Assembly: GCA_963528875.1 (NCBI GenBank)
Contig: CAURWT010000002.1
Coordinates: 150,001-182,000 of the forward strand
Reading direction: 5' to 3'
Source of the DNA: an uncultured Candidatus Saccharimonas sp.
GTDB taxonomy: Bacteria; Patescibacteriota; Saccharimonadia; Saccharimonadales; Saccharimonadaceae
Length of the DNA: 32,000 nucleotides
A model generated the notes under the pieces. That model had not been told where the DNA came from, did no database searches, and was given only the letters and a program-made list of their open reading frames with translations. Both the position numbers and the translations under genes were made by a program. Shown here piece by piece: positions 1-30,851 of this stretch; position 1 is the first letter of the stretch, and each line of letters opens with the position of its first letter.

Positions 1-77
1 TTTTTTTGCTTTCAAGATTAAGCTTTAAGCTCGCTTTTTCAAGCTCATTTAAAATTTCGCCAACGCGAGCTTTCAGC

Positions 78-509
78 TTATCCATAATTTATTTCTTTGC
101 CGCCTTCTTCAGCTTCTGCTTCAGTATCATCGTCTGTGAAAAGTTTTTCAACAAACAAAAGTACGAAATATACAACGAATGCAATTACTAAAAAGTTAAT
201 GACATCGTTTAAAAATGCACCATAAGAAAGAACTGCTTCTTTACCTGCTGGTGTTTTTCCCATATTCCAAACAACACCTTTCAAACCTTCGGCTGATCCA
301 AGAATGAAACCAAGTGGTGGCATAATGATATTATTAATCAAAGACTTAACAAGATCGCCAGAAGCCGTACCGAGAATTAAACCGATCGCCATTCCGATCA
401 ATCCTTGATCTTTAATAAATTTTTTAAAACCCGCAAATTGTGCTTTTGGGTCTACTGCTTTTAATTTTAAAGCAGATTTCTTTGTAGATTTAGCTTGTTT
501 TTTAGTCAT
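78..509 (-). CDS. mscL: Large-conductance mechanosensitive channel MscL
   Basis: 143 aa. MscL core GFKKFI..GLIGMAIGLILGTASGDLVKSLINNIIMPPLG plus second TM NFLVIAFVVYFVLLF. Lys-rich N-terminal extension, acidic tail, and only one possible ATG. Confidence 0.9.
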   Translation of the reverse strand: MTKKQAKSTKKSALKLKAVDPKAQFAGFKKFIKDQGLIGMAIGLILGTASGDLVKSLINNIIMPPLGFILGSAEGLKGVVWNMGKTPAGKEAVLSYGAFLNDVINFLVIAFVVYFVLLFVEKLFTDDDTEAEAEEGGKEINYG

Positions 510-516
510 AATATAA

Positions 517-545
517 ATTTTATCATAAAAGGTTTACATTTTCAA
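517..545 (-). promoter_or_regulatory. mscL promoter inside the murD 3' end: TTGAAA (540-545), 17 nt, TGaTAAAAT (517-525). The -10 ends 7 nt before the ATG.
   Basis: Reverse complement of 510-545 reads TTGAAA-N17-TAAAAT-ttatatt-ATG. There is no Shine-Dalgarno in the 7-nt gap. Confidence 0.6.
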
Positions 546-1857
546 CAAATTGTTCACCGCGATCAACATAACTTTTAAACATATCAAAACTGGCATGAGC
601 AGGGCTTAAAATAATCACATCACCACTTTTTGCGTTTTCGAAAGCGGTTTTTACAACTTCTTGCATATTTGTTTTTGTGCCTAAATTTATAAACCGCTCG
701 AATCCGCTTGATATCAATTTCTGGGCTAGTTTTTCAGATTCTGCCCCCATTAAAATTACCTTTCGAAGCTCTTGCTCTGGCATTTTTGCAATTTTTCCAA
801 TCAGTTCACTTAGATCGGCGCCTTTATTGCTTCCACCAAGAATTAGAATTTTTGGCTTTTCGAAAGAATTTAGTGCAGCAATCGCACTACCCGGTGTGGT
901 TGCAATGGAATCATCATAAAATCGCACACCTTCAAACTTACGAACAAATTTTAACCGATGTGGTAAACCTGTAAATTTCGAAAGCCCCTCTCGCCAAAAA
1001 TCGAAGATTTCCTCAATTTCGAAACCCTCTTCACGCAAAAAATCAAAGGTTGCAATCATTGCAGCACAAGCATTTTTTTGATTGTGTTCGCCTGGAATTT
1101 TCAAAATATCAGTTTCGAAGAGAACTTCATCTCCCCATAAAAAATGATCTTCTTGAATATGGGCTAAATTGTAGTTCTGAAAAGGCTGAAGTTCCGCCTT
1201 GAGTTGATTTTTTAAGTTTTCAACATTTTTTAAAACTATTGGATTTTCAGCATTAAAAATAAAAAAATCATTCTCGGTTTGATTTTTAGCAATATTCATT
1301 TTTGCCGCCACATAATCTTCAAAATCATCATGAACGTCAAGGTGATCAACTTCAAGATTATTTAAAATTGCAATATGCGGCGATTTTTGAGCATCCCAAA
1401 GCTGAAAACTGCTGAGTTCATAAATCACGGCATCATCTTTTTGAATTTTCGAAAGCTCATTAAGTGCTGGTAAGCCAATATTGCCAACAAGATGAATACT
1501 TAAACCAACTGCACGCAAAATTTCAGCAATAAAACTCGACACAGTTCCCTTGCCTTTTGAGCCAGTTACACCAATAATTGGTGCTGGGCATTTTTCGAAG
1601 AATAAATTTGTAACAGATGTAATTTTAGTATTTTTCGGCAAACGGCTAGGATTAACTGCGGGTGTTCGCACGATCAAATCTGCTTGAATTTTTGAAAAAT
1701 CATGAAAATCACCAAAGAATTTAACGCCACTTGGTAGCTCAATTTTACTTTTTGGGTTTTCGTCATAAATTTCAAAAGTATTATTTTGATCAATACTTTT
1801 GAAATAATCATAAGCACTTTTTGCCTCGAGCCCAAAACCAATTAATGCAATTTTCAT
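523..1857 (-). CDS. murD: UDP-N-acetylmuramoylalanine--D-glutamate ligase MurD
   Basis: 444 aa. N-terminal Rossmann-like MKIALIGFGLEAKSA, Mur-ligase P-loop GVTGSKGKGT, DHLD motif, and MurD-typical GLPHRLKFV..EGVRFYDDSIATTPGSAIAAL. SD AAAAGGAG lies upstream. Confidence 0.85.
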   Translation of the reverse strand: MKIALIGFGLEAKSAYDYFKSIDQNNTFEIYDENPKSKIELPSGVKFFGDFHDFSKIQADLIVRTPAVNPSRLPKNTKITSVTNLFFEKCPAPIIGVTGSKGKGTVSSFIAEILRAVGLSIHLVGNIGLPALNELSKIQKDDAVIYELSSFQLWDAQKSPHIAILNNLEVDHLDVHDDFEDYVAAKMNIAKNQTENDFFIFNAENPIVLKNVENLKNQLKAELQPFQNYNLAHIQEDHFLWGDEVLFETDILKIPGEHNQKNACAAMIATFDFLREEGFEIEEIFDFWREGLSKFTGLPHRLKFVRKFEGVRFYDDSIATTPGSAIAALNSFEKPKILILGGSNKGADLSELIGKIAKMPEQELRKVILMGAESEKLAQKLISSGFERFINLGTKTNMQEVVKTAFENAKSGDVIILSPAHASFDMFKSYVDRGEQFVENVNLL

Positions 1858-1911
1858 ATTTCTCCTTTTAGTTTAGATTATCTTTATTTTATTTTAGCAT
1901 ATTTCATGCAA

Positions 1912-1948
1912 AAAAACACCCCTTCCATTTTTTTGGAAGAGTGTTTTT
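1912..1948 (-). terminator. Intrinsic terminator downstream of the 823-aa membrane protein gene
   Basis: Imperfect inverted repeat AAAAACACcccTTCCA / TGGAAgaGTGTTTTT. On the minus strand it is followed by a T-run. Confidence 0.6.
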
Positions 1949-1952
1949 ACAT

Positions 1953-4424
1953 TTAGTTAGCACCAAATTTTCTGTTTGATTTAGTTGGATCGCTCGCAGT
2001 TTGCCGAGGTTGGATATTTTGATTACTATTATTTATCGGCTGCGAGGCTTGGCTAACTCGTGCTGCAGGCGCACTATACGTAACGGAGCTGGAACCGGAA
2101 GCAGTAGCAGAAGAGCCAGTCTGAGCTTGTTGTGGAGCCGATGTTTGCGAAGTATGTAATTGAGCCAGCTTTTGCATTGCCATAAAGTTAGCTTGCTGAT
2201 CTGGTGTTAGAGACATTGTTCCATTTGCATTAGCGGTAAGAGCTTGCTCGGCAATCTTGCCCATATTCTGCGCTTGCGAAATCTTACTTTGGTCACCACT
2301 ATTAAATGCGCTTTGCATTGCCTTAAACGCTTTATTGTCATTAACATTTGCGCTAGACATGTCAGACCAATCAGCCATTTGTTTAGCACTTGCACCTGAG
2401 TATGTTGAAATATCATTTTCGAAATCTTGAACAGATTTAATATTTCCTGAAGAAAAATCTTGCATGACTGCTTTTGCTGCAGCAGGGTTAACCTTCTTAA
2501 TATCACCACCCGCTTTTGAGGCAATTTGAGCTGCGATAGCACGACTTTGGTCTACATCGCCGATACTTAACGCACTGTTTGCGATATTACTCATAGCAGC
2601 GGCCTGACCAGCAGTGTTCAAACCGGAATTAGTAACTGCTTGAGCAAGAGCTCCATACATCAACCTCTGCTGACCTGGATCTTTAACTTTCGAAATCTTA
2701 TCAAGCTCATTATTAACCATCGAGGCATTATTTCCGATACTATATGTCATAGCGGCAACCATTCCCTCATTTTGGCTCTTTTCGTAGCTAGCAACTCTAG
2801 AACCGTATCGTGCTCGCCTTCGATAGTCCGCCGCAGTTTTATTTTTCTTTTTATCTAGCTTTTCAAGAGCAGCTTTATCTCTTTCGTATTGACCTTCTTC
2901 GAATTTATCGTTTCTGGCATTTTTACCAATAGCAATACCACCAATAGTTCTATCCAAAGCTTTTGCCCTTGAAGCTCTAGCCCAGTTTGAATCTTGCGCC
3001 GCTGCATTAATACGACCGCTCATCTTACCTAGAGCACCACGCAAGTTTCCGCCAGTTAAGCCGTCAATAAACGAAAGCACAGTTTTAATAATTGCAATAA
3101 TTGCAAATAGTGACAATATGGGCAAAACACCATAAATAATTTTGAGTAGAGGGTCATCAACCACACCATACAGTAAATTAGAGACAAACAAAGCGCCACC
3201 GACTATTAATGAACAAATCGGGTAAATCATTAGCATATTTTTTGTAAGCTTGATCCACTTTTTGAATAATCCTTCTGTATTCGGCAACAACCCTGCAACA
3301 AAAGCTAAAGGAGAAGTTACTACAAGAACAATAACCGCCGCTTCCCTTATCATTAATATAAACACAGTCATAACAACGGCGAGCGCCGCAGAGGCAATAA
3401 ACAGAAGAATTGTAGCTCCGCCAACAAGAGCAGCAGTAACTCCAGCAGCAATAAGTGCACCTGTTGCTACAGTACCTGTTAGAATTCCTTCAACAGGAGA
3501 TGTTTCTTTTTGAACATCACTCGAAAAGCTCCAATTTCCATCATTTGATAACCATTTAAATAAAGTACTACCAACAATATTTGAAATATCAATAGCAATT
3601 ACAACAATATACCAAGAAATATTAACTAAAATTGCATAGATAATAATTTTTGGCAGCATCTTCTTAATACCATAGCTAGAAATCCCTACACCAGTTACTT
3701 GCGAGAAAATTATTATTGCAATCATAATTACAAAAAATATATTTGCAATATCTCTAAATGTTACCCAGTGTTTAAATGCTTCTTGCCCCTTTCCAGAATT
3801 TGAGAAAAGTTGATCAGACTTAATATTTAAGAAATTTGCTTGCATGAAATTATACAGACCTACAACAACACCAGTCGAACCACGAACAATCGGGCAAACA
3901 ATCCAACCAATCCATTCAATAGCGCACGAATTTTTGTCTTTATTAGATTCCTTAGTTTGCTTGTCCATTTCCTCAATTGCAGCCTTGGCTTCATTATTCT
4001 TTTTAGTCCAATCGCCATCGTTTATTGCGGGAGAATAATTACATTTTTTCTTGAGCTCATTAAGTTTCTTCTCGTCAACACCGGCAGCTTTAGCCTTTTT
4101 GTACGCCTCTTCACATTTAATTCTATCATTATTAGCTGTATTATTTCTTACGTCCTGCTGGGTTTTATCTGTTGTAGGTTGCGAAGATCTACCAGTTGGG
4201 GTTGTAGGAACAACCTGATTGTCTTTTTTTCTTTTTTCTTCTATTTCTCTATTCTTCTTCTCTTGCTCTGCTTTTTTCTTAACTTCATCAGGTGTAACAA
4301 AATTACTGTTAGGATTAGTCAAATCTATAGCATTTGCAAAATTATTACTAAAAAAAGAAAAAAATACTAAAAAAATAACTATTAAAACTTTTTTATTTTT
4401 CAACCCAACCCAAAAACTTTTCAT
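1953..4424 (-). CDS. Large multi-pass membrane protein (823 aa). The VirB6/ConG/TcpH-like architecture is speculative.
   Basis: Signal peptide ending ..NNFANA, then a Lys/Glu-rich charged region and about 7 hydrophobic spans (e.g. IANIFFVIMIAIIIFSQV, IIIYAILVNISWYIVVIAI, AAVIVLVVTSPLAFVAGLL). A roughly 350-aa Ala/Ser/Gln/Asn-rich low-complexity tail follows. I recognise no catalytic motif. Confidence 0.75.
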   Translation of the reverse strand: MKSFWVGLKNKKVLIVIFLVFFSFFSNNFANAIDLTNPNSNFVTPDEVKKKAEQEKKNREIEEKRKKDNQVVPTTPTGRSSQPTTDKTQQDVRNNTANNDRIKCEEAYKKAKAAGVDEKKLNELKKKCNYSPAINDGDWTKKNNEAKAAIEEMDKQTKESNKDKNSCAIEWIGWIVCPIVRGSTGVVVGLYNFMQANFLNIKSDQLFSNSGKGQEAFKHWVTFRDIANIFFVIMIAIIIFSQVTGVGISSYGIKKMLPKIIIYAILVNISWYIVVIAIDISNIVGSTLFKWLSNDGNWSFSSDVQKETSPVEGILTGTVATGALIAAGVTAALVGGATILLFIASAALAVVMTVFILMIREAAVIVLVVTSPLAFVAGLLPNTEGLFKKWIKLTKNMLMIYPICSLIVGGALFVSNLLYGVVDDPLLKIIYGVLPILSLFAIIAIIKTVLSFIDGLTGGNLRGALGKMSGRINAAAQDSNWARASRAKALDRTIGGIAIGKNARNDKFEEGQYERDKAALEKLDKKKNKTAADYRRRARYGSRVASYEKSQNEGMVAAMTYSIGNNASMVNNELDKISKVKDPGQQRLMYGALAQAVTNSGLNTAGQAAAMSNIANSALSIGDVDQSRAIAAQIASKAGGDIKKVNPAAAKAVMQDFSSGNIKSVQDFENDISTYSGASAKQMADWSDMSSANVNDNKAFKAMQSAFNSGDQSKISQAQNMGKIAEQALTANANGTMSLTPDQQANFMAMQKLAQLHTSQTSAPQQAQTGSSATASGSSSVTYSAPAARVSQASQPINNSNQNIQPRQTASDPTKSNRKFGAN

Positions 4425-4433
4425 AATGCTTAT

Positions 4434-4462
4434 ATTTAATCACAAAAAAGCAAAAAAATCAA
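4434..4462 (-). promoter_or_regulatory. Promoter of the 823-aa membrane protein gene: TTGATT (4457-4462), 17 nt, TGaTTAAAT (4434-4442). The -10 ends 9 nt before the ATG.
   Basis: Reverse complement reads TTGATT-N17-TTAAAT-ataagcatt-ATG, with no SD. Confidence 0.55.
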
Positions 4463-4483
4463 TATAGTTATGCTTTTTGCCAT

Positions 4484-4511
4484 AAAAAATAGCCTGCAAT
4501 TTTGCAAGCTA
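4484..4511 (-). terminator. Intrinsic terminator downstream of the DUF2207-like gene
   Basis: On the minus strand the stem TAGCTTGCAA/TTGCAGGCTA has one G-U pair and is followed by TTTTTT. Confidence 0.65.
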
Positions 4512-4546
4512 CTTTTCGAAATTCTGCTTTATAGAAAGGTGCAGTT

Positions 4547-6439
4547 TTACCAACCGCCACCTCCGCCGCCGCCAGCGCCTCCGCCGGAGAATCCGCCGCC
4601 TCCGCCAGAGCTACTCGAACTTGGTGCAGAATAACTGTTCATTGCACTATTAAAGCTGTTCAAGCTGTTCGAAAATACCATAGCATTAAACGCTGTTGAG
4701 CCAACATACCAATCTGGTAGGTAATCTTCATCTTGAAATTGTAATTCAAGTACCTTCGCCCAAGATTTCTCTAGCCCAAACAACGCTGCCCAAGGTAAAA
4801 GTTTTTCATAAAGTTTTACGCGAGAGCCATCAAATTCAGTATGGAATCTTTCAGAATTCTGCAGGCTTTGCGAGAACATTAACCGTTCGCTTTCTGCCAC
4901 CGAAATATAAAGCTTTAAACCTTCAAGATAATTCTTTGCTTCAAAACCTTTACGAGATAGAATTTTTATATTTGAAATAGTAAATATTAAAATTGAAAGT
5001 GCGACGGCTGCAATGAAAGAATATATAGCTATCGTAAACCAAGGCGAAATAGTTGAAATAAAATTAACCAGTATTCCATTTGCAAATAACAATACTACAG
5101 ATAAAACGATCACTCCACCGGCAAAAAACTGAGAAGTGCTGAAAACTGCTGGCTTTTCTTGAACATAGTAAGAAGTTCCGCTAAATGCAGAATTCAAAAC
5201 TTTCGAAGAAATATCAGAGGCTTGCATACTGCTCATTTGTTTAGATAAATCAATCTCAGTTTTACTTCTAAAAAATGAATTTAATAATGAAAGCATGTCT
5301 TGATTCAAATTATCTCGATTTAATAGCTGAATTATATAGCTCTTTTTCTCACCACCCAAAAAGCCCTTTGAAGTTTTTTCAACAATCTGAATATTGCGGT
5401 TCACTGCAAAAAATAGCATTGCAGCAGTAAGTTTTTTATTTGATTTTACTAAGTTTCCCGCATCCAAAATATCTAATTCTTTAATTTTTGGCGGCAAATA
5501 TTGCGGAACAACCGCTTTCGAAACCTTGTTTTCTCTCTTAACTGAATTATATTTTAAAATAACCCGAATAGCAAAGAATAATGTAATTACCACCAAAATT
5601 ACTGCCAAAATTCCAAAAATTATTGTATTTACATCGATACCGCTCACCTCTGGTTGGGTAAATTTATTATTAAAGTCAATTTCAAAAGTTAGATTCTCAC
5701 CAGCTTGGACATCTTTTTGTGAGAACTTAAAGACCCCCTCTTCCGGCTTACGTTCAAAAATATTACACTTTTCAGTTGAACCTTGTATTCCAGCGAAACA
5801 TCTCACCGTACCATTAAATTCTTTCAAAACTGATGAATCTAAATTAACTGTTGCAATAACTTCATTAAAAGGCCGCTTCCACTGAGTACCATTGGTGTTC
5901 ATAATCAATTTTTGTACACCGCCATCTGTTAACAGTAGATTTCTAAACCGATATTTTAGCTGATAATTATGCCTTCCGTAAACGAAACTTCCGCTTTCAC
6001 CAATTCGAAATACGATATTTCCACCACTTTCATAAGTTGAATATGAAACTTTTTTGCCATCCATTTCAATTTCAGCTTTACCATCAAAAATAGTTTTACC
6101 ATTAAAAAACCGCGGAATTGCACGCTCGATTCCATGATTTATCCCATCATTAATAAAATATGTCGAAATATTTTCAGTAATTTCAAGGTTTGTATTTCCT
6201 TTTTGGTCGGCACTAAAATTATATTTTGCATCAAACTTTGAAAAAATAATATTATAATTTTTTATTCGTTGTTCAGCTTCTTCAGCATCACGACTCCGCC
6301 GTCTTCTGGCAAAAGCTTGATTTGAAAAACTACTAAAAGTAAAACTAAAAGCCAAAACCGCCACTAAAAATAGTGGCATAATTTTGGTGATTTTTCGAAT
6401 AAAATTATTTTGTAATTTCATTGTCGGTTGTTCCTGCAT
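4547..6439 (-). CDS. DUF2207-family membrane protein. The start is probably the ATG at 6421.
   Basis: N-terminal signal/TM MKLQNNFIRKITKIMPLFLVAVLAFSF, a large extracytoplasmic domain, TM spans in the middle and C-terminal parts, and a characteristic Gly-rich C-terminus SSSSGGGGGFSGGGAGGGGGGGW. It overlaps the ldhA 3' end by 17-35 nt. Confidence 0.75.
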   Translation of the reverse strand: MQEQPTMKLQNNFIRKITKIMPLFLVAVLAFSFTFSSFSNQAFARRRRSRDAEEAEQRIKNYNIIFSKFDAKYNFSADQKGNTNLEITENISTYFINDGINHGIERAIPRFFNGKTIFDGKAEIEMDGKKVSYSTYESGGNIVFRIGESGSFVYGRHNYQLKYRFRNLLLTDGGVQKLIMNTNGTQWKRPFNEVIATVNLDSSVLKEFNGTVRCFAGIQGSTEKCNIFERKPEEGVFKFSQKDVQAGENLTFEIDFNNKFTQPEVSGIDVNTIIFGILAVILVVITLFFAIRVILKYNSVKRENKVSKAVVPQYLPPKIKELDILDAGNLVKSNKKLTAAMLFFAVNRNIQIVEKTSKGFLGGEKKSYIIQLLNRDNLNQDMLSLLNSFFRSKTEIDLSKQMSSMQASDISSKVLNSAFSGTSYYVQEKPAVFSTSQFFAGGVIVLSVVLLFANGILVNFISTISPWFTIAIYSFIAAVALSILIFTISNIKILSRKGFEAKNYLEGLKLYISVAESERLMFSQSLQNSERFHTEFDGSRVKLYEKLLPWAALFGLEKSWAKVLELQFQDEDYLPDWYVGSTAFNAMVFSNSLNSFNSAMNSYSAPSSSSSGGGGGFSGGGAGGGGGGGW

Positions 6440-7394: not shown

Positions 7395-7400
7395 ACATCA

Positions 7401-7429
7401 ATTATAATGCTTATACTTGCTTTTTTCAA
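7401..7429 (-). promoter_or_regulatory. ldhA promoter: TTGAAA (7424-7429), 17 nt, TATAAT (7401-7406). The -10 ends 6 nt before the ATG.
   Basis: Reverse complement of 7395-7429 reads TTGAAA-aaagcaagtataagcat-TATAAT-tgatgt-ATG, with no SD. Confidence 0.7.
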
Positions 7430-7438
7430 GAGCTGATA

Positions 7439-22645: not shown

Positions 22646-22657
22646 GCGGTCAACACG

Positions 22658-22681
22658 CCTCGCCAAAATGGCGGGGTTTTT
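22658..22681 (+). terminator. Intrinsic terminator of ORF 22280-22645
   Basis: CCTCGCC-aaaat-GGCGGGG (one G-U) followed by TTTTT. The next -35 begins 3 nt later. Confidence 0.8.
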
Positions 22682-22684
22682 CTA

Positions 22685-22713
22685 TTGACTTTTTTTATTT
22701 TTTATGTTATTAT
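22685..22713 (+). promoter_or_regulatory. Promoter of orphan ORF 22750-23067: TTGACT, 17 nt, TGtTATTAT
   Basis: TTGACT at 22685-22690 and TATTAT at 22708-22713 with an extended-10 TG. Confidence 0.65.
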
Positions 22714-22749
22714 AGTTATGTTTTAAAGCAAAAAACAAAAAGGAATCAA

Positions 22750-23067: not shown

Positions 23068-23088
23068 TAAATAATAGCAATAAATAAC

Positions 23089-23124
23089 AAAAGACCTCTT
23101 AAATTTTAACGAAAGAGGTCTTTT
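23089..23124. terminator. Bidirectional terminator between ORF 22750-23067 (+) and the adhesin gene (-)
   Basis: AAAAGACCTCTT-12 nt loop-AAGAGGTCTTTT, a perfect 10-12 bp stem. Confidence 0.75.
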
Positions 23125-23140
23125 ATATTATCTATTCTAT

Positions 23141-24685
23141 TTAATAGTTTTTTCTAATAACAATTATAGAAATTACAGAAAGTGCAGCACCACCCATGAA
23201 AAGTAAATTCTTAACAAAATTATTTTCGAAACCTGTGTTTGGTGCAGTAATATTTTCTTTTGGCTTCTTCTCTTCTTTTACTGGGTTCGAAGGTTTTTCA
23301 GGTGCAGGAACGCTTTTCTTTTTATAAACAAACGTTACAATCTTTACACCTTCTTCAACTTTTCCAGTTTTAGGCGATGAGTTTTTAAGTAGTTCAGCTT
23401 TTTCGAATCCTTCGAATTGCTTTTCTTCAGCAGCATAGTCTGTACCTACTTGAACTTTATTTGCTAGCAAGACTTCAGGAGCAAGGCTTGTACCGTTTTC
23501 ATCTTGATAGCGCACAATCACAGATCCACGCTTTTTGATATCTGCGTAAGGTTTCATTTTTGCGCCACTTATAATACTTGTAGCCGTCTTGTCTAGAGAG
23601 AAATATTTATCATTTCCTCGGTAGATTTCTGTAGTTGCAGAAATTGGGTTCAATTTGTTCTCGTTATAGTTAATTGTTTTTTCGCTAGTGTCCAAAATAG
23701 TTAATTTTGGCAAGAATTGATACAAAGCTTTATCATCGGCAATTTCTACAATCTGGTATACTAACTCGTGGCTTGAATTTTCTATAACTTTATACTTTAA
23801 GTTTACGCCAGTTTTAAGCAAGATGCCTTTTGAAGTAGCATTATCACCAAAGTTAGCATATAGCTCCTGAGTATTTATAGTGCCAACTGCGCCCTCTTTC
23901 GGATTCAATTTTGCATCAAACGCAACTCCAGAAGATTCAGGTAATTTCATCTTAACAATGTCGCCTGGTTTAATGTGTTTAGGATTATTTTTATCAGACT
24001 GCATCAATCCAAAGTCAAATATTGTGCCATTTAAATTTTCGCCATCTTGGCTAGAGGCGCGAAAAACATTAAATCTAAAATCAACTGCTGGCGTTATTTT
24101 GCCAACCCCATTAATAGTGCCAGTTTTATGTGCAATTTCTTTATTATTCACTTTTACGGAATGTTCAATATTATATTTATGATTAACCCAAGCAGAATTA
24201 TTTTCTGAGACAAGCTCTATCGAAAGTTTCATATCGGAAAACTTTTTAGCTTGATCATTGAAAACTAGTCGATACTCAGAATTTCTAGCCGAGCTTTTCT
24301 CTGGAATAATATCATTTGCTTTAGGGTTTCCCTTAATAGCTCTTTTATTAAATAGTTCAACGACAGTATTTTCAGTTTTAATAAGTTTCATCTTTCCGAT
24401 AATAATATCTTTATAACGGATTTCTTTATCTGGTAACCCGGTTTCAATAATATTTTCAAATCTAATATCAACATAATCGCCAGCATTAATATTCTGACCA
24501 TTTTTAACGCTAATATTGATCTTAGTATTAGTCCAATTGGCCGAACCGCCCGAAGAAAGCTCTTTAATCTCACCCGTTGCATCAACATCAATTCTCTTTG
24601 CTGTATCAGCAAATGCAGGTTGAGCTAAAAATAAAGCACAAACAGCGCCCAGAAAAGCATAAACTGCTATTTTATTCTTAAACAT
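23141..24685 (-). CDS. Cell-wall-anchored surface adhesin with C-terminal MucBP domain and APNTG sorting signal
   Basis: Signal peptide MFKNKIAVYAFLGAVCALFLAQPAFA. MucBP-like block GSVIVRYQDENGTSLAPEV..VGTDYAAEEKQFEGFE..VKIVTFVYKKK. C-terminus APNTG (23231-23245), then a hydrophobic span and RKNY. Confidence 0.8.
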   Translation of the reverse strand: MFKNKIAVYAFLGAVCALFLAQPAFADTAKRIDVDATGEIKELSSGGSANWTNTKINISVKNGQNINAGDYVDIRFENIIETGLPDKEIRYKDIIIGKMKLIKTENTVVELFNKRAIKGNPKANDIIPEKSSARNSEYRLVFNDQAKKFSDMKLSIELVSENNSAWVNHKYNIEHSVKVNNKEIAHKTGTINGVGKITPAVDFRFNVFRASSQDGENLNGTIFDFGLMQSDKNNPKHIKPGDIVKMKLPESSGVAFDAKLNPKEGAVGTINTQELYANFGDNATSKGILLKTGVNLKYKVIENSSHELVYQIVEIADDKALYQFLPKLTILDTSEKTINYNENKLNPISATTEIYRGNDKYFSLDKTATSIISGAKMKPYADIKKRGSVIVRYQDENGTSLAPEVLLANKVQVGTDYAAEEKQFEGFEKAELLKNSSPKTGKVEEGVKIVTFVYKKKSVPAPEKPSNPVKEEKKPKENITAPNTGFENNFVKNLLFMGGAALSVISIIVIRKNY

Positions 24686-24719
24686 TTTTCTCCCTTTATT
24701 TTTATTACTTATGCTTAAA

Positions 24720-24748
24720 ATTATAACTGTTTATGTATAAAAAGTCAA
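24720..24748 (-). promoter_or_regulatory. Adhesin promoter: TTGACT (24743-24748), 17 nt, TATAAT (24720-24725)
   Basis: Consensus hexamers on the minus strand. The 5' UTR carries SD AAAGGGAG. Confidence 0.7.
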
Positions 24749-24762
24749 GACTTAAAAAATCA

Positions 24763-24794
24763 CAAAAATAAAACTCCACCGTTAGTGGTAGAGT
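24763..24794 (-). terminator. Intrinsic terminator downstream of tsf
   Basis: Minus-strand ACTCTACC-actaac-GGTGGAGT (one G-U) followed by TTTTATTTTT. Confidence 0.75.
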
Positions 24795-24815
24795 CTTATT
24801 GTAAAAAAATATTTA

Positions 24816-25412
24816 TTATTCGTTAACACCGAGTTCGATGCGTGAGAATTGTCGCACAACGATATTTTCACCAAGTTTTGCAACAGTTTCTTTCAAGAAT
24901 TGCTCAACAGATTTGCTGTCATCCATAATGTAAGTTTGTGAAAGTAGAACTTTTTCCGCAAAGTATTTTTTCACTTGACCATCAACAATTTTAGCAGCAA
25001 TTTCAGCTGGCTTTCCTTCTTTCGAAACTCGCTCTTCAGCTTCAGCTTTTACGCGAGCGATTTCTTCTGCCGGAATGTCAGCCTCAGTAGCATAAACTGG
25101 CGCCATAGCAGCAATTTGCATTGCAATTTGGTGGGCAAAATTCTTGAAATCTTCTGTTCGAGCAACAAAGTCGGTTTCGCAGTTAACTTCAACAATTACA
25201 CCGATTCGACAACCATGAACGTAAGCCTCAACCAAACCTTCACGAGCTTCTCGGTCACCTTTTTTCTCAGCTTTTGTTAGACCTTTTTTGCGAAGAGCCT
25301 CAAGAGCTTTATCAAAATCACCTTCAGCTTCAACAAGGGCTTTTTTGGCATCGGTCAAACCAAGACCTGTCAATTCTTTAAGTTTCTTAATTTCTTCAAT
25401 AGAAACAGCCAT
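24816..25412 (-). CDS. tsf: Elongation factor Ts (short 198-aa form)
   Basis: UBA-like N-terminus IKKLKELTGLGLTDAKKALVEAEGDFDKALEALRKKG and core VEVNCETDFVAR. Confidence 0.92.
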   Translation of the reverse strand: MAVSIEEIKKLKELTGLGLTDAKKALVEAEGDFDKALEALRKKGLTKAEKKGDREAREGLVEAYVHGCRIGVIVEVNCETDFVARTEDFKNFAHQIAMQIAAMAPVYATEADIPAEEIARVKAEAEERVSKEGKPAEIAAKIVDGQVKKYFAEKVLLSQTYIMDDSKSVEQFLKETVAKLGENIVVRQFSRIELGVNE

Positions 25413-25435
25413 TTTTATCCTTTCGAATTTAAGAA

Positions 25436-26128
25436 TTATTTATCAGTTTTAGCTTCTTTGATAGCTTCAATCACATAATCCAAAAGCAATTTAACACCTT
25501 TAATAGCGTCATCATTTGCTGGGATTACGTAATCAATTCCATCTGGGTTTACATTTGTATCAACAATTGCAACCACTGGAATATTCAAAGTTTTAGCTTC
25601 ACGAATTGCGTTTGCGTCAGCGATTGCATCAGTTACGAACAAAATTCCTGGGCGACCCATTAAATCTTTGATTCCACCATATTTTGTATTCAAAGCTTCG
25701 ATTTCTTCAGCATATCGTTGAACTTCAAGTTTCGAATAGCGTTTTGTAAGTTCGCCGCTAGCCATTCGTTTTTCAAGAGTTTTCAATTTCTTGATTTGCT
25801 GGTTTACAGTTGCTGAGTTTGTAAGCATTCCGCCCACCCATCGTTCAATAACATATGGTTGTTTTACACTTTCAGCAGCTTCACGAACAGCTTCTTTAAC
25901 TTGTTTTTTAGTTCCAACAAAAAGAACTTTTCGGCCAGATTCAACCGCTTTAGTAATAGCTGGAAGAGCTTTTTCAAGACCTTCGACAGTTTTAGTTAGA
26001 TCGATAATGTGGCTATCTTGACGCTTGCTATGAATGTATGGCGCCATTTTTGGGTGCCAGCGTGAAGTTTTGTGACCAAAATGAACGCCAGCTTCAAGCA
26101 ACTGCTTGATATCAATTTTTACAGACAT
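25436..26128 (-). CDS. rpsB: 30S ribosomal protein S2
   Basis: LLEAGVHFGHKTSRWHPKMAPYI.. and VDTNVNPDGIDYVIPANDD. SD AAAGGAG. Confidence 0.95.
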   Translation of the reverse strand: MSVKIDIKQLLEAGVHFGHKTSRWHPKMAPYIHSKRQDSHIIDLTKTVEGLEKALPAITKAVESGRKVLFVGTKKQVKEAVREAAESVKQPYVIERWVGGMLTNSATVNQQIKKLKTLEKRMASGELTKRYSKLEVQRYAEEIEALNTKYGGIKDLMGRPGILFVTDAIADANAIREAKTLNIPVVAIVDTNVNPDGIDYVIPANDDAIKGVKLLLDYVIEAIKEAKTDK

Positions 26129-26232
26129 TTTAACTCCTTTGTCTTCATTTTTGGGGATAATTTCGAAAAACTCTCGAAAGGAATTCTCCCAAAAATTGTT
26201 TCATTAATTTATATTACTTTTCAATTATATCA
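26129..26232 (-). promoter_or_regulatory. rpsB-tsf promoter (TGaTATAAT at 26224-26232) and structured 5' leader (long imperfect hairpin 26148-26195)
   Basis: The leader of about 90 nt pairs UUUUUGGGaGAAUU with AAUUauCCCCAAAAA, enclosing a smaller TCGA/TCGA stem. SD follows. Confidence 0.5.
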
Positions 26233-26248
26233 TATTTAAAAGAAAAAG

Positions 26249-26270
26249 AAAAGAGGCTTTAACCTCTTTT
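26249..26270 (-). terminator. Intrinsic terminator downstream of the second surface-protein gene
   Basis: AAAAGAGG-ctttaa-CCTCTTTT, followed on the minus strand by a T-rich tract. Confidence 0.65.
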
Positions 26271-26293
26271 CCACTATCTCTAGCTATTAAAAG

Positions 26294-27601
26294 TTAGAGC
26301 TTTTTTCGAATAACAGCTGCACTAGTGATTAAAGTTAAAATAATATAATTTAGCGCAAGAAATGCATTAGAATTCTGTTTTTCTACACCAGTATTTGGAG
26401 CATAAAGCCAAACTGGAGATATTTTTGTTTTAAATTCACCTTTATCATCTATTTCTCGTGCTGGAATTTTATCATCTTTCGGAATTATATTCTTTTGATA
26501 AATAATATTTTCGACAATATTTTCACTATCAGCATTAACTGCTAACTCATTTACCGCTTCTTTATCGTAAGTATATCCTTCAATCTTCGGAGCATTAACC
26601 TTTTCGAAAGTATGAGCTTTTCTCCAATCGCTATCATCAACAGTATAAGTTTCTTCAACTAATTTACCACGATAACATGACCCGTTAGTAATTCGTTTGA
26701 AATATGCCTTCTGAACTGTAGGTTTAGCAGCAATAGATCCATCTTTATATAAATAATTAATCGTTCGTTGTACAGTTTTATTTTCTACAAAACTGCAAGG
26801 GTATATAGGTGGAGTATCCACTGTATCAAAATCCTGAATAATATCTCCATTGATATCTTTCACTTTAGACACCACAGAGAGCTGTCTCAACCATGGATCT
26901 AGTAGCATAGATGAAACATCAATGGTTGTAGAAAATGTTCCGTCTGCTTGAACGATTGCCGAACCATTTTTAACAGGATTATCCAACATAAATCCCTCAT
27001 TAACTCCAAATGTTACAGTTTCACCTGCGGGTACATTTTTAGTAGTTCCAGTAATATTTAAAATTCCACGTTTTTCATCTAATGCTATAGCTGCATCGAT
27101 ATTAGTTTGCGCAATATAATCTATACCGAAAACATCATTATCCACTCCAGGACCATAAGGAGCATAACCGTTCCAAGAGCCCTTCATGCTAACAAATAAT
27201 TTTCCATAGGGTAATGACGAAATATCTATATTAACCTTATATGGAGTGCCATCTTGTTCAAAATAATTATCTGTTATTCTTTCATATTCTTTCACGCCAA
27301 TATAATTTTCTTTCGTTACTGGAACGCTAACCATTTTACCACCTGTAGTTTTTACAGCGGCAGTGAGTGTCTGGTTTTTTGCATTTTCCAAATTCTCAAT
27401 TTGGCCATAAATCGTAAGGGTCTTTTGTGAATCAATACAGTATTTCCTTATACTAATTGTATAGTTAGAATTTCCAACTACACCACTAGTATCACCACAC
27501 CGCTCTACAGAAGCGTATGCACTATTACTTACTCCCTCAGAAAAAACGCCAAAAATAGAAAAGGCGCAAAATAGGATAAAAAACCCAAATTTTCTTTTCA
27601 T
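26294..27601 (-). CDS. Cell-wall-anchored surface protein with MucBP_2-like domain and APNTG sorting signal
   Basis: Signal peptide MKRKFGFFILFCAFSIFGVFS. Block RTINYLYKDGS..KAYFKR..SDWRKAHTFEKVNAPKIEGYTYDKE..ENIIYQK resembles Mub B2/MucBP_2 repeats. C-terminus APNTG (26387-26401), then a hydrophobic span and RKKL. Confidence 0.78.
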   Translation of the reverse strand: MKRKFGFFILFCAFSIFGVFSEGVSNSAYASVERCGDTSGVVGNSNYTISIRKYCIDSQKTLTIYGQIENLENAKNQTLTAAVKTTGGKMVSVPVTKENYIGVKEYERITDNYFEQDGTPYKVNIDISSLPYGKLFVSMKGSWNGYAPYGPGVDNDVFGIDYIAQTNIDAAIALDEKRGILNITGTTKNVPAGETVTFGVNEGFMLDNPVKNGSAIVQADGTFSTTIDVSSMLLDPWLRQLSVVSKVKDINGDIIQDFDTVDTPPIYPCSFVENKTVQRTINYLYKDGSIAAKPTVQKAYFKRITNGSCYRGKLVEETYTVDDSDWRKAHTFEKVNAPKIEGYTYDKEAVNELAVNADSENIVENIIYQKNIIPKDDKIPAREIDDKGEFKTKISPVWLYAPNTGVEKQNSNAFLALNYIILTLITSAAVIRKKL

Positions 27602-27727
27602 ATATTACTACATATTTAAAATTTATTTCAAGACTATCCTAATACACCTTAAAACTAAAAGCAAGCATAGGCATTTTATTTTATTTAAAATATTATATAA
27701 TATGCTTATTTTTAACTTAATTTTCTA

Positions 27728-27756
27728 TTTACTTTCTTAAAATAATATGTTAAAAT
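27728..27756 (+). promoter_or_regulatory. rpmE promoter: TTTACT, 17 nt, TGtTAAAAT. The -10 ends 9 nt before the ATG.
   Basis: TTTACT at 27728-27733 and TAAAAT at 27751-27756. The gap agaaaagtt has no clear SD. A second possible TATAAT lies at 27696-27701. Confidence 0.55.
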
Positions 27757-27765
27757 AGAAAAGTT

Positions 27766-28086
27766 ATGAAGAAGAATTTACATCCAACCGAGTATCGCCC
27801 TGTCGTATTTAGCGACGAGGTGGCTGGATTTGCTTTCTTGACTCGCTCAACAGCAGATTCAAAAGAAACTATCAAATGGGAAGACGGAAACGAATACCCA
27901 CTTGTAAAAATGCACATCTCTAGTGCTTCTCACCCATTCTTTACTGGTGAAGAAAAAATCATCGATACCGAAGGTCGTGTTGACCGCTTCAAACGAGCTC
28001 AAGAAATGGCTGCCGCTCGTAAAGAAGCTTTGGCAAACAAAGCCAAAAAGCAAGCTGCTGAAAAAGCTAAAAAAGCTGAACGATAA
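27766..28086 (+). CDS. rpmE: 50S ribosomal protein L31, type B (no CxxC zinc motif), with a Lys/Ala-rich C-terminal extension
   Basis: [16 protein letters not shown]...GFAFLTRST...[28 protein letters not shown] matches type-B L31. Confidence 0.9.
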
Positions 28087-28097
28087 TTCATCTAAAA

Positions 28098-28129
28098 ATA
28101 AAAATCTCACAACTAAATGTGAGATTTTT
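28098..28129. terminator. Bidirectional terminator between rpmE (+) and ung (-)
   Basis: AAAAATCTCACA-actaaa-TGTGAGATTTTT, a 9-11 bp perfect stem. Confidence 0.85.
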
Positions 28130-28135
28130 ATTTTA

Positions 28136-28798
28136 TTATTTTACCCGCCAATCAATTGGAGTTTCGCCATTTTGTTCTAAAAATTTGTTCGCTTTCGAAA
28201 AAGGCTTTGAACCAAAAAATCCACGCCGTGCTGAAAATGGTGAAGGGTGTGCACTCTCAATTTTAAGGTGTTTTAAATTAGTTATTCGGGTACCAACTTT
28301 TTGTGCATGTGCTCCCCACAAAATAAAAACTAACGGCTTTTCGAAATCATTTAAAAAATCTAAAACATGTTCTGAAAATTCCATCCATCCAAAATTTGCG
28401 TGGCTTGCTGGCTTGCCTTTTTCAACACTAAAAGAAGTGTTTAGCAGTAAAACACCTTGCTTCGCCCAAGATTCTAAAAAACCATCGCTGGCTGGCTCAA
28501 TTCCTAAATCGCTTTGCAGTTCTTTATAAATATTTTGCAAACTTGGTGGAATTTTAACGCCTTTTTTAACCGAAAAACTCATTCCGTGCGCCTGCCCTTC
28601 TCCATGATAAGGATCTTGACCGATAATTACAACCTTAGTTTTTTCAAGCGGGCATTTTTTAAAACAAGAAAAAATCTCTTCTCTTGCGGGAAAAATCTCT
28701 TTCGAAGCACGTTCACGTTCAACTTTTTGCCATAACTTTTTAAAATATGGCTTGGTGGCTTCATTTTCAATAAATTCTCGCCAAGAGGTTATTTTCAT
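28136..28798 (-). CDS. ung: Uracil-DNA glycosylase (family 1)
   Basis: [13 protein letters not shown] water-activating loop, GVLLLN and HPSPFSA motifs. Collinear with E. coli Ung from the first residue. Confidence 0.93.
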
Positions 28799-28804
28799 AT
28801 CAAA

Positions 28805-28833
28805 ATCTTATCATAACCACAATCAAATTTCAA
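28805..28833 (-). promoter_or_regulatory. ung promoter: TTGAAA (28828-28833), 17 nt, TGaTAAGAT (28805-28813). The -10 ends 6 nt before the ATG.
   Basis: Reverse complement reads TTGAAA-N17-TAAGAT-tttgat-ATG, with no SD. Confidence 0.6.
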
Positions 28834-28836
28834 TAC

Positions 28837-28865
28837 TTCAAATTTATGCGAATTTCTGGTATAAT
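28837..28865 (+). promoter_or_regulatory. prfA promoter: TTCAAA, 17 nt, TGgTATAAT. The -10 ends 7 nt before the ATG at 28873.
   Basis: TATAAT at 28860-28865 with an extended-10 TG. It lies back-to-back with the ung promoter in a 74-bp spacer. Confidence 0.6.
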
Positions 28866-28872
28866 ATTTTAT

Positions 28873-29952
28873 ATGCCAAAAATTGATCTAAATCTTGATA
28901 AACTTAAAACTGAGCGCGAAGAAATTCAGACTTTTTTGAGCGAGCCAAACGCTTATTCTTCGCCTGATTTTTCTGCCAAAAACAAGCGATTCACCGAACT
29001 TGAAAAAATTATTGAAAAAGGTGAATTGCGCGAAAATCTTGAAAAAAATATCGAAGAAGCGCGCGAACTTGCTAGTCTTGAAACGGGTGAGCTTGCGGAA
29101 CTTGCCAAAATTGAAATTACCGAAAACGAAGAAAAACTTGCCAGTCTCGAGCAAGAGCTTTTCGAAATGCTTCTCCCTAAAGATCCAAACGACGAAAAGA
29201 ACGTGATTGTTGAAATCCGTGCAGGAGCCGGTGGCGACGAAGCTTCCCTTTTTGCGAGCGAACTTTACCGAATGTATTTGCGATATTGTGAACAAAATGG
29301 CTTAAAGACCGAACTTTTGAGCGAATCCGCAAACGATGCTGGCGGCTACAAGGAAGTTGTTTTTGGAGTAAAAGGTGATGCCCCTTATTCAAAATTAAAA
29401 TTCGAAAGTGGCGTTCATCGAGTTCAGCGCATTCCCGCTACCGAATCTCAAGGTAGAATCCATACCTCAACTGTAACAGTAGCAGTTTTGCCTGAGGCCG
29501 AAGAGGCTGATATTGAGATCAATCCGAATGATTTACGAATTGATGTCTATCGTTCGGGTGGTCATGGCGGTCAGAGTGTGAACACAACCGATTCTGCCGT
29601 GCGAATTACTCACATTCCAACTGGTATGGTGGTTACAAACCAAGATGAAAAATCACAAATTAAAAACAAGGAGAAAGCCATTGGAATTTTGCGTGCGCGC
29701 CTACTTCAAGCTAAAATTGATGAGGAAAATGCCAAACTTACCGCCGAACGCCGTAGCCTAATTGGCTCTGGCGACCGCTCCGAAAAGATTCGAACCTACA
29801 ACTTCCCACAAGATCGCATCACCGACCATCGAATCGGTTTTTCGCGTAGTAATATTCCAGCCGCAATGAATGGGCAAATTTCAGATATTGTTGAACACTT
29901 GCAAGCTGCCGAGCTTGAATTCTTGGCCGCTAACGCTTCAGAAAATAACTAA
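28873..29952 (+). CDS. prfA: Peptide chain release factor 1
   Basis: PAT tripeptide ([14 protein letters not shown]) and GGQ motif ([12 protein letters not shown]). The start at MPKIDLN aligns with other RF1 N-termini. The upstream ATG at 28846 would place the TATAAT box inside the CDS. Confidence 0.92.
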
Positions 29953-29955
29953 TTT

Positions 29956-30789
29956 ATGCGAGAGACTATTGAATCTTGGCTGAAAAAATCAGCTCAAAAA
30001 CTTAGAAATGCTAAAATTGAAAGTTCACAACTTGATGCTGAGCTAATTTTAGCAAACGTTTTAAAAGTTGAACGAACTTTTTTACATGCAAATCCGCAAA
30101 AAAAGCTTTCGAAAACTCTGGTTTTTCACGCTAATAACTTTTTAAATAAGCGCCTAAAGAGGATTCCGCTCGCTTATATTTTTCGAGAAAAGGAATTTTT
30201 TGGAAGAACTTTTTTCGTGAACGAAAATGTACTAGTTCCTCGCCCAGAAACTGAAACCCTAATTGAAATTACTAAAAAAATTGCCAAAAAAGGTGATAAA
30301 ATTTTAGATGTTGGTACAGGTTCTGGAATAATTCCAATCACTCTAAAAGCTGAGCTTGGCGAAAATATTGATTTTTTTGCGAGCGACATTTCACTTCAAG
30401 CGCTTTCTGTGGCGAATCTAAACGCTATAAAAATCCTTGAAAGTGAAATTGAGCTTTTCGAAAGTGATCTTTTAAGCCAAATACCGTCAGAAATTCTTTC
30501 GAAAATAACAATAATTACAGCAAATTTGCCGTATGTTAATAAAGATTGGATAAATTTCAAAAAGAATAATGAGCTACATTATGAACCACAAATTGCACTT
30601 TATGCTCAGAAAAATGGTTTAGAGACAATTTTTAATTTAATTTTTCAAGCTCAAGATTTACCAAAATTGCAAAAAATTATTCTTGAAGCTGACCCTTCTC
30701 AATTTGAGGAAATTGAAAATTATGCCAAAAAATGTGGTTTTTCAAAAACTTACTCAGAAAATTACACAATTATTTTCGAAAAAAAATAA
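29956..30789 (+). CDS. prmC: Release-factor glutamine N5-methyltransferase PrmC/HemK
   Basis: SAM motif ILDVGTGSGIIPI, catalytic tetrapeptide NLPY (30523-30534) in place of NPPY, and a position 3 nt after the prfA stop. Confidence 0.85.
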   Translation: MRETIESWLKKSAQKLRNAKIESSQLDAELILANVLKVERTFLHANPQKKLSKTLVFHANNFLNKRLKRIPLAYIFREKEFFGRTFFVNENVLVPRPETETLIEITKKIAKKGDKILDVGTGSGIIPITLKAELGENIDFFASDISLQALSVANLNAIKILESEIELFESDLLSQIPSEILSKITIITANLPYVNKDWINFKKNNELHYEPQIALYAQKNGLETIFNLIFQAQDLPKLQKIILEADPSQFEEIENYAKKCGFSKTYSENYTIIFEKK

Positions 30790-30851
30790 CCCAAATGGAT
30801 GTATGACATTCAGCAGTCTAAATAATCTGAGTTCACACATCTTATAAATAC

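Follow-up and report, generated by a model that had tools for sequence, protein, structure and literature searches.

The palindrome TTCGAA is strongly enriched in one young clade of Saccharibacteria: a possible DNA self tag

Palindromic sites of restriction-modification (R-M) systems are normally avoided in genomes; why, then, is one such hexamer, TTCGAA, the most over-represented word in a stretch of Saccharibacteria DNA? The question is raised by a 32,000-nt stretch of contig CAURWT010000002.1 (positions 150,001 to 182,000 of the forward strand), here referred to as the window, from an uncultured member of the Saccharibacteria (TM7), which are tiny epibiotic bacteria. We find that TTCGAA in the window is shaped by a whole-hexamer, frame-independent, flank-symmetric, clade-specific and young DNA-level force, which also acts in non-coding DNA.

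Exact counting gave 96 copies of TTCGAA in the window (3.0 per kb; GC content 35.4%), close to the ~95 copies that an initial annotation of the same DNA had counted by hand. The copies form a dispersed, strandless set at 637..30780, the first starting at 637 and the last at 30775 (starts 637, 762, 859, 977, 1018, 1114, 1448, 1594, 2418 ... 30457, 30498, 30775). Base composition predicts 10.7 copies, within the range of 10-12 estimated earlier, and the observed number is 9-fold higher. First-, second- and third-order Markov models predict 21.8, 36.6 and 50.3 copies, respectively, while shuffles that preserve dinucleotides gave 22.1±4.3 copies with a maximum of 32, i.e. a 4.3-fold excess that 0/100 shuffles reached. 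In these tests, some of which the initial annotation had proposed, TTCGAA ranked first among all 4096 hexamers under every null from base composition through the third-order Markov model, and ranks 2 and 3 among the outliers were occupied by TCGAAA and TTTCGA, both of which overlap TTCGAA. Nothing can be learned from the fourth-order (maximal) Markov expectation of 82.7, since the motif itself raises the counts of its 5-mers TTCGA and TCGAA. In the two 60-nt lines that had been inspected by eye, 3/9 CpG dinucleotides lie inside the motif, as stated.

The ±10 kb that flank the window on the source contig (ENA ERZ28636975 scaffold_8, 375 kb) were equally enriched, giving 158 copies in 51.5 kb of window plus flanks (observed/expected 4.28). 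Site spacing was near exponential (mean 317 bp, coefficient of variation 0.98), and no periodicity was visible over 32-51 kb. Other palindromes, i.e. AGCGCT, CTTAAG, AACGTT and ATGCAT, are avoided in the present genome; therefore, ordinary restriction-site avoidance operates in it.

The preference extends by one base to either side of the hexamer. Nearly half of the sites (45/96) are the octamer TTTCGAAA, T being found at position -1 in 65/96 and A at position +1 in 64/96 sites (~67% each), while T precedes only 39% of other TTC trinucleotides. The two flank preferences are reverse-complement symmetric and mutually independent (0.67 on each side), and this symmetry favours recognition of double-stranded DNA over RNA; strand asymmetry is useless for separating DNA-level from RNA-level selection because the motif is a palindrome. 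Beyond ±1, no flank information was present in the window sites, and therefore the TTCGAA set is not a repeat element. An origin from repeats, miniature inverted-repeat or repetitive extragenic palindromic elements (MITE/REP) or structured RNA was ruled out: the flanks are empty, searches of the window for tRNA and Rfam elements returned no matches, and the T-loop context GTTCGAAT occurs once. Finally, 55% of all TCGA tetramers sit inside TTCGAA and, therefore, the specificity is for the full hexamer; a TCGA-level (TaqI-like) specificity was ruled out by this proportion and by the other NTCGAN words, which are at the outgroup level.

For analyses of coding sequences (CDS), we used the 31 long open reading frames (ORFs) of the window. 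Pfam annotation of the window ORFs identified MscL, MurD, a TrbL_3-like protein, DUF2207, a 2-hydroxyacid dehydrogenase, ProS, GreA, a CAAX protease, RseP, RRF, XseA, an M16 peptidase, SecA, HPF, SerS, MucBP and Muc_B2 adhesin-like proteins, Tsf, RpsB, L31, a UDG-family protein, PrfA and PrmC. The CDS contain 89 TTCGAA, which are read in all three frames (30/18/41), and the frame examples singled out earlier at 637, 6394 and 977 are correct. Shuffling of synonymous codons within genes gave 26.4±4.3 copies (maximum 38 in 300 shuffles) and shuffling of codon order gave 20.2±4.1 copies; the observed/expected ratio thus did not approach 1 after codon-aware shuffling. Moreover, the non-coding DNA contains 6-7 copies in ~3.3 kb vs ~1 expected from composition, and enrichment is therefore found in each frame as well as between genes.

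Codon choice follows the motif. Phe is encoded by TTC in 60% of cases before GAA vs 14-23% elsewhere (p=2e-8), and TTC makes up 14% of Phe codons before other codons starting with G. Likewise, among TCN codons for Ser, TCG is used in 61% of cases in the T_AA context vs 11-28% elsewhere, and Arg is encoded by CGA in 62% of cases in the TT_A context vs 13-42% elsewhere; in each frame, the odds of codon choice near the motif are shifted ~6-fold. In a wobble test, in which the other five bases match, the cognate base was over-used at all six motif positions (41/41 vs 24.7 expected at position 1; odds ratios of 4-11 at positions 3-6). This test shows specificity for the whole motif and is silent on the mutational route because a context-dependent process that acts only at CpG gives the same conditional pattern. 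A codon, dipeptide or codon-pair artefact was ruled out by the two types of shuffles, the per-frame counts and the context tables. In total, these observations, together with the symmetric flanks, demonstrate that the enrichment results from a DNA-level process and not from a peptide or codon artefact, as the initial annotation had argued.

At 198 positions in the CDS of the window, the encoded protein permits TTCGAA by synonymous choice, and 89 of these (45%) are occupied. Occupancy is high in conserved housekeeping genes, i.e. 10/13 in secA (15510..18182, minus strand; 10 sites) and 7/10 in the D-2-hydroxyacid dehydrogenase (ldhA-like) gene (6405..7394, minus strand; 7 sites), and murD (523..1857, minus strand) has 8 sites in several frames (6.0 per kb); the hand counts for these three genes were exact. 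Occupancy is low in fast-evolving genes for surface and hypothetical proteins, i.e. 3/13 in the gene for a TrbL_3-like membrane protein of 823 aa (1953..4424, minus strand) and 2/8 in the Muc_B2 gene (26294-27601). The M16 peptidase gene is also low, with 3/11 permitted positions occupied.

SecA places the organism in the Saccharibacteria in the neighbourhood of Nanogingivalis (85% identical to Ca. Nanogingivalis). Motif density in relatives, a comparison that had been called for at the outset, was determined in 80 species-representative Saccharibacteria loci. Enrichment was confined to the window and seven loci (L001-L007), i.e. eight species-level genomes with SecA at least 96% identical. 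All eight genomes of this clade have 2.7-3.1 TTCGAA per kb (observed/expected 2.7-4.3), and TTCGAA is also the top-ranked hexamer in L001-L005 and L007. By contrast, observed/expected was 0.95 in the next relative, L008 (SecA 85%), 0.71 in Nanogingivalis and 0.0-0.3 in the Nanosynbacter groups, and it averaged 0.55 in the remaining phylum; environmental Saccharibacteria had 116 copies vs 212 expected. In one Nanosynbacter group of eight loci, the avoidance was strong, with 9 copies vs 80.8 expected (p=4e-24), which, together with the palindromes avoided in the present genome, bears out the earlier statement that palindromic R-M sites are normally avoided. Occupancy of permitted positions followed the same pattern (clade, 0.39-0.51; L008, 0.09; Nanosynbacter, 0-0.04). 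Seventeen TTCGAA were also counted in L294, an unlinked locus of 4 kb that belongs to a further clade member; in a pattern scan of metagenomes for other carriers, the matches were mostly local clusters and only L294 fell in the clade.

We conclude that TTCGAA became enriched on the stem lineage of a single young Saccharibacteria clade. The contrast in observed/expected between this clade and L008, Nanogingivalis and Nanosynbacter requires a lineage-specific factor, and TTCGAA-specific enzymes evidently circulate in the phylum. The idea that L008 is a fossil of past enrichment, based on its 20.7 permitted positions per 1000 codons, was unsupported as its orthologous SecA has only 7 permitted positions. 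The Nanosynbacter-like loci L012-L043 also avoid TTTAAA (12 vs 117 expected), GGGCCC and TCCGGA, which implies a matching restriction pressure in the Nanosynbacter-like lineage. ACTAGT was considered as a second 'dialect' in Nanosynbacter and rejected; the evidence is weak, and its ~3-fold excess in part reflects the same orthologous sites counted across several genomes.

How did the sites arise? Most of the 11 clade sites in SecA are at residues that differ from the outgroups, e.g. IKN or IRN in outgroups corresponds to ISN (ATT TCG AAC) in the clade. In SecA orthologues from elsewhere, 0-3 sites are present and 3-11 positions are permitted, while those in the clade have 10-13 permitted positions. 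Codon alignments with outgroups are collinear at TTCGAA sites. Moreover, in six orthologous proteins, residues encoded by the motif are 0.63 identical to L008 vs 0.80 for other residues (p=5e-4). In total, we conclude that the sites were made by point substitution, both synonymous and by replacement of amino acids at weakly constrained residues. Uptake sequences also sit at less conserved residues (Findlay and Redfield 2009, PMC2817400).

The clade consists of subclade A (the window and L001-L004; 87-92% nucleotide identity) and subclade B (L005-L007). The two subclades are 81% identical and 0.6 substitutions per 4-fold site apart, and their TTCGAA densities are equal. In the clade alignment, CpG is not depleted (observed/expected 1.15-1.34). 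Where both subclades align, 47 TTCGAA columns are shared, 39 are found in subclade A only and 24 in subclade B only. Retention from the window to L005 is 0.58, vs 0.35 for frame-matched hexamers and 0.19-0.23 for CG-centred hexamers. This retention is similar to the occupancy at equilibrium (0.45-0.6), sites may have been made anew where the protein permits them, and the value is therefore no proof of site-specific conservation. Losses and gains were counted on sister pairs with outgroup support and calibrated on control hexamers, L002 being basal. TTCGAA was lost at a rate of 37/189 (0.20) vs ~0.30 for CG-centred controls, a ratio of 0.65 with a rough confidence interval of 0.45-0.89 calculated by hand from the counts; this loss rate equals that of the average hexamer.

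Identity among the clade genomes is a mosaic. The window at 12-13 kb is 95% identical to L004 and 71% identical to L001-L003, and at 26001-27000 it is 95-96% identical to L003 and L004, dropping to 71-75% for L001 and L002. The alignments indicate that two small hypothetical genes and the Muc_B2 adhesin-like gene underwent allelic replacement or recombination. From the mosaic identity, homologous exchange is therefore active in the clade. At 12-13 kb, the identity to L001-L003 is below the identity to the other subclade.

Which mechanism causes the enrichment? The initial annotation had listed four candidates, with TTCGAA as the target of a methyltransferase, a signal for uptake or self-recognition, a site for a nucleoid protein or the product of motif-specific repair, and our data could not choose among them. 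'Protective' methylation alone would give an observed/expected of ~1 and not 4. The reading that we favour, tentatively and as one possibility, is that TTCGAA, preferably as TTTCGAAA, is a highly iterated palindrome that acts as a clade-specific self tag, similar to the cyanobacterial HIP1 palindrome and to uptake sequences, and that it is a methyltransferase target that accumulates via transformation and recombination. The word would be recognised in double-stranded DNA by a protein with two-fold symmetry, and the symmetric, independent flank preference fits such a dimeric reader. The likeliest reader would be a TTCGAA-specific (BstBI/AsuII-type) DNA methyltransferase held by the clade and not by its neighbours; this is the most economical candidate because TTCGAA is a classical type II specificity (BstBI/AsuII), TTCGA(m6A)A methylation occurs naturally in metagenome epigenomes and the avoidance in sister lineages resembles restriction. 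Fragments with more (methylated) TTCGAA would then be favoured in ComEC-dependent natural transformation and homologous recombination, and copies would build up by a molecular drive similar to that of uptake sequences.

Several lines of evidence favour a drive by uptake and recombination. Saccharibacteria are naturally competent through ComEC (PMC10633639); in cyanobacteria, methylated HIP1 lifts natural transformation >100-fold (bioRxiv 10.1101/2024.09.10.611283) and an uptake-sequence role has been proposed for HIP1; in Campylobacter jejuni, RAATTY is a self-signal in transformation only when methylated by the orphan methyltransferase CtsM, as summarised in the same preprint (bioRxiv 10.1101/2024.09.10.611283); and the footprint of TTCGAA in the proteome resembles that of the uptake signal sequences (USS) of Pasteurellaceae. 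Moreover, high-frequency iterated palindromes (HIPs) co-occur with cognate methyltransferases (PMC4390886).

TTCGAA shares with the HIP class that it is a palindrome, ranks first and is spread by substitution in all frames. HIP1 (GCGATCGC) and the alternate cyanobacterial HIPs are likewise short palindromes, the cores of which are recognition sites of type II methyltransferases, and HIP1 consists of CGATCG with a G and a C added, just as TTCGAA consists of a 6-mer core with one symmetric base on each side. HIP1 is also the top-ranked word of its genomes, spread by point substitution in all frames and in intergenic DNA, and has a density similar to that of TTCGAA (~1 per 330 bp). As is the case for TTCGAA, it is lineage-specific with replacement or absence in relatives. 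HIP1 sites are retained between relatives above controls; the retention of TTCGAA sites also exceeds that of controls, but its meaning is ambiguous because it is about equal to the equilibrium occupancy. Finally, HIP1 hosts are naturally competent, and the Saccharibacteria group is competent too. The two systems differ in several respects: HIP1 belongs to another phylum and is enriched 15-300-fold, a range that TTCGAA with its 4-9-fold enrichment does not reach; TTCGAA is AT-rich and much younger, being restricted to genomes with SecA at least 96% identical; its cognate methyltransferase is only a candidate; and it is avoided in sister lineages.

The USS and the DNA uptake sequences (DUS) of Neisseriaceae share with TTCGAA clade-specific 'dialects', a location of most copies within genes, a preference for poorly conserved residues with some remodelling of the proteome, few copies in divergent genes, hosts from a competent group and signs of recombination. 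Their copies number in the hundreds to thousands, with a density of ~1 per kb or above, to which the 3.0 per kb of TTCGAA corresponds. In contrast to TTCGAA, which is a perfect palindrome of 6-8 bp with far less information, they have non-palindromic cores of 9-12 nt with oriented flanks, and DUS has a dedicated receptor, ComP. RAATTY with CtsM is, like TTCGAA, a frequent palindromic hexamer in an AT-rich genome, and the mechanism proposed here is by analogy to it; however, RAATTY is degenerate, occurs ~1 per 60 bp by composition and needs no large excess, whereas TTCGAA is exact, contains CpG and is 4-9-fold over-represented. R-M site avoidance involves the same word (BstBI/AsuII), which in the rest of the phylum behaves as an R-M target would, with the sign reversed in the present clade. 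Oriented signals such as Chi and KOPS are strand-skewed and non-palindromic, whereas the self-complementary TTCGAA permits no skew. In full-text searches of the literature for TTCGAA, we found no description of its over-representation in bacterial genomes, and a search on Saccharibacteria methylation motifs found nothing on TTCGAA.

The self-tag proposal also faces a number of observations that weigh against it. Known DUS and USS are 9-12 nt long and non-palindromic, and a 6-8-mer offers only ~5-10-fold discrimination between self and foreign DNA, unless the specificity resides in methylation. Neither the 51.5 kb of window plus flanks nor L294 (~55 kb in total) was found to contain a gene for a DNA methyltransferase or an R-M system, or a com or pil gene; therefore, the mechanism is inferred and the reader protein hypothetical. 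The evidence for competence comes from other Saccharibacteria and not from the present clade, and Southlakia is transformable with synthesized linear donor DNA (PMC10633639); therefore, the uptake machinery of the phylum is not generally tag-dependent. On recent branches, gains from conserved neighbours that differ by one base are at the control level (5/114 by CpG transition vs 0.03-0.06), and the parsimony gain:loss ratio of 24:15 (1.6) is somewhat below the 2.7 of control hexamers in the same procedure. Finally, uncultivated phage contigs carry TTCGAA at 6-9 per kb.

These phage contigs are three stretches from IMG/VR, i.e. L241 (1-11599; UViG_3300044959_000303), L239 (1-11983; UViG_3300044959_000237) and L260 (1-6983; UViG_3300020567_000331). 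In L241, 105 TTCGAA fall within 11.6 kb; the word ranks first among hexamers in L241 and L260 and second in L239. CpG observed/expected is 1.7-1.9 in these contigs and the TTCGAA spacing is aperiodic. Two of the stretches, which are from contigs of 107-111 kb, encode tail-fibre, HNH/homing-endonuclease and KdsD-like genes and a tRNA-Arg. No close relatives of the dense contigs were found among 50,697 isolated phage records. The presence of a KdsD-like gene suggests that the phage host is Gram-negative and not TM7. The contigs appear unrelated to TM7. Dense iteration of TTCGAA can therefore arise where a role as an uptake signal is unlikely.

Such iteration without an obvious uptake role would also be expected if biased repair or gene conversion specific for the motif, i.e. 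a methyltransferase together with a Vsr-like or methyl-directed correction, turned near-cognate into cognate sites, the sites themselves having no function. A methyl-directed mismatch-repair 'ratchet' of this kind was proposed by Elhai for HIP1, in a model built for HIPs that are paired with methyltransferases (PMC4390886), and Vsr repair at CCWGG in Escherichia coli is a known route to an excess of methyltransferase sites via T:G to C:G correction. The even density in housekeeping genes and the exponential spacing are in line with such a process. Moreover, 57% of the single-difference alleles at motif columns are the products of CpG transitions, TTTGAA and TTCAAA, and most polarised gains and losses use this route; however, CpG transitions are also the main synonymous routes, and their excess is expected under any model. 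Under a Vsr-only model, TTTGAA and TTCAAA should be depleted and T to C in this context should be frequent, but neither was seen: the two neighbours occur at 2.5-3.8 per kb vs 2.4 in L008, and T to C at TTtGAA on terminal branches was 1/38, not raised vs 0.055-0.118 for other T. Similarly, C to T at TTcGAA was 0.154, equal to the 0.155 at other CpGs, i.e. neither a hot spot of 5-methylcytosine deamination nor a correction is visible. Neither a vsr nor a methyltransferase gene was found in the 55 kb examined. Altogether, we regard biased repair as rather unlikely. The word bias attributable to Vsr in E. coli is much smaller than the TTCGAA effect. On terminal branches in general (window 5001-28500 vs L001-L007), transitions at CpG (0.155 vs 0.078) and at TpG/CpA (0.118 vs 0.055) were each about twice as common as at other C or T sites.

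Unlikely to a greater degree is a selected function in the chromosome, with TTCGAA as a binding or methylation site through which the nucleoid is organised, an epigenetic regulator acts or strands are told apart during replication or repair. For HIP1, selection and a role at the level of the nucleoid have been inferred (Xu, Lawrence and Durand 2018, PMC5861425), and this precedent, the retention between subclades above that of all hexamers and of CG-centred hexamers, the loss rate of 0.65x that of CG-centred controls, the constant density across the clade and the intergenic copies kept within subclade A are all in line with a function of the sites. However, individual sites are not shown to be conserved as retention is close to the equilibrium occupancy, positions turn over fast (47 shared vs 39 and 24 subclade-specific columns), the coefficient of variation of 0.98 reveals no spacing rule, and the closest relative manages without the sites although its genes are very similar.

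An improbable alternative is that TTCGAA is a relic of a past burst, in which near-saturation was reached in the ancestor of the clade by any mechanism, followed by neutral decay without a present function. The control-level gain rate on terminal branches, the gain:loss ratio below that of the equilibrium controls and the loss rate equal to that of the average hexamer would all fit such decay, and independent decay of a saturated ancestor would also give the sharing of 0.58 between subclades. Given a divergence of ~0.3 substitutions per synonymous site per lineage, however, ~90-100% of the permitted positions would have to have been occupied in the ancestor to leave 0.39-0.51 in all eight genomes, and a pure relic is disfavoured because of this nearly complete saturation. 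Moreover, loss is slower than in CG-centred controls (ratio 0.65, 0.45-0.89), and there are 24 gains polarised by parsimony, whereas pure decay predicts a gain:loss ratio 4-6 times under the control. In total, the gain and loss data fit a maintained equilibrium or mild decay and not a pure relic.

Finally, a translation- or RNA-level artefact (dipeptide usage, codon-pair bias or a UUCGAA mRNA motif) is scarcely credible and largely refuted here: although nearly the whole window is transcribed and the palindrome bars a test of strand asymmetry, all three frames and intergenic DNA are enriched, the enrichment outlasts synonymous and codon-order shuffles, TTC is not favoured before other codons starting with G (14%), the flanks mirror each other as reverse complements, and tRNA and Rfam elements are absent, with the T-loop context found once only.

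Among the intergenic sites, three adjoin a Shine-Dalgarno sequence, as had been noted earlier. The site at 8701..8706 adjoins that of proS (TTCGAAaaggag on the gene strand) and is kept in the five subclade-A genomes, while subclade B has TTAT(AA) there. The site at 11266..11271 is upstream of rseP (TTCGAAagggtag; context TTCGAAagggtagaATG) and is kept in subclade A, while subclade B has TTCA-A or TTC---. The third site, upstream of tsf (TTCGAAaggat; context TTCGAAaggataaaaATG), is at 25422..25427; the list of intergenic copies made at the outset gave 25423, which is off by one, and was otherwise accurate. The remaining sites in this list are at 4515..4520, upstream of the gene for the 823-aa TrbL_3-like protein, at 19293..19298, just 3' of the hpf stop codon and present in 7/8 clade genomes, and at 26162..26167, 34 nt upstream of rpsB; all of these are strandless. 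A further site, at 12923, is outside the long-ORF set. It probably falls in a small unannotated ORF next to xseA (12815-13021, minus strand), the translation of which (..FEKAEKLEEELDSLKN..) resembles the small subunit of exonuclease VII (xseB).

The tail of the window (30781..32000, strandless) has a GC content of ~29-30% and zero TTCGAA. It contains an ORF for a membrane-like protein of 155 aa (31140-31607), in which 0/7 permitted positions are occupied, followed by the 3' end of a Peptidase_S9/hydrolase gene. The 155-aa ORF is widespread in the clade (45 index blocks) and therefore not obviously foreign, and the gap is local only, the next 9.6 kb of the source contig containing 25 TTCGAA.

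Two further genes of the window deserve mention. The ORF at 1953-4424 had no match in the Pfam scan, while on the source contig the identical gene carries the precomputed annotation PF19590 (TrbL_3); its product may be a type-IV-secretion-like membrane component typical of Saccharibacteria. In the MucBP/Big_8 adhesin-like gene (23141-24685), GTGCAG occurs at 23182, 23242 and 23302, i.e. with an exact spacing of 60 bp, which points to a tandem repeat of 60 bp (20 aa); GTGCAG scored as an outlier hexamer because of this repeat.

The origin and purpose of HIPs have been debated for ~30 years, and HIP1 has only now been tied to methylation-dependent transformation; its cause is hard to isolate because HIP1 is ancient and phylum-wide. 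The TTCGAA signal, by contrast, is young: it is bracketed by SecA identities of 85% and 96%, absent in the nearest relative and inverted in the sister clade. Given this youth and tight bracketing, a comparison of gene content among a few metagenome-assembled genomes should therefore reveal the responsible methyltransferase, receptor or repair gene, and the clade may provide a case study for how such tags arise. At the same time, TTCGAA, at ~3 per kb in DNA of 35% GC, is an inexpensive marker for binning of the clade, and (methylated) TTCGAA in donor DNA might open gut Saccharibacteria to genetics. With 45% saturation and remodelling of amino acids, a DNA-level force strongly shapes this reduced genome. 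If the self-tag proposal holds, which in the following form is more doubtful still, a methylation-marked palindromic self tag would have evolved recently in a clade of human- or animal-associated Saccharibacteria and would govern DNA uptake or recombination in transformation; within the Candidate Phyla Radiation, no earlier system would resemble an uptake signal, and the tag would be an independent, young re-invention of what HIP1 does. As sister lineages appear to carry TTCGAA restriction, the specificity may have flipped from a 'weapon' to an 'identity tag'.

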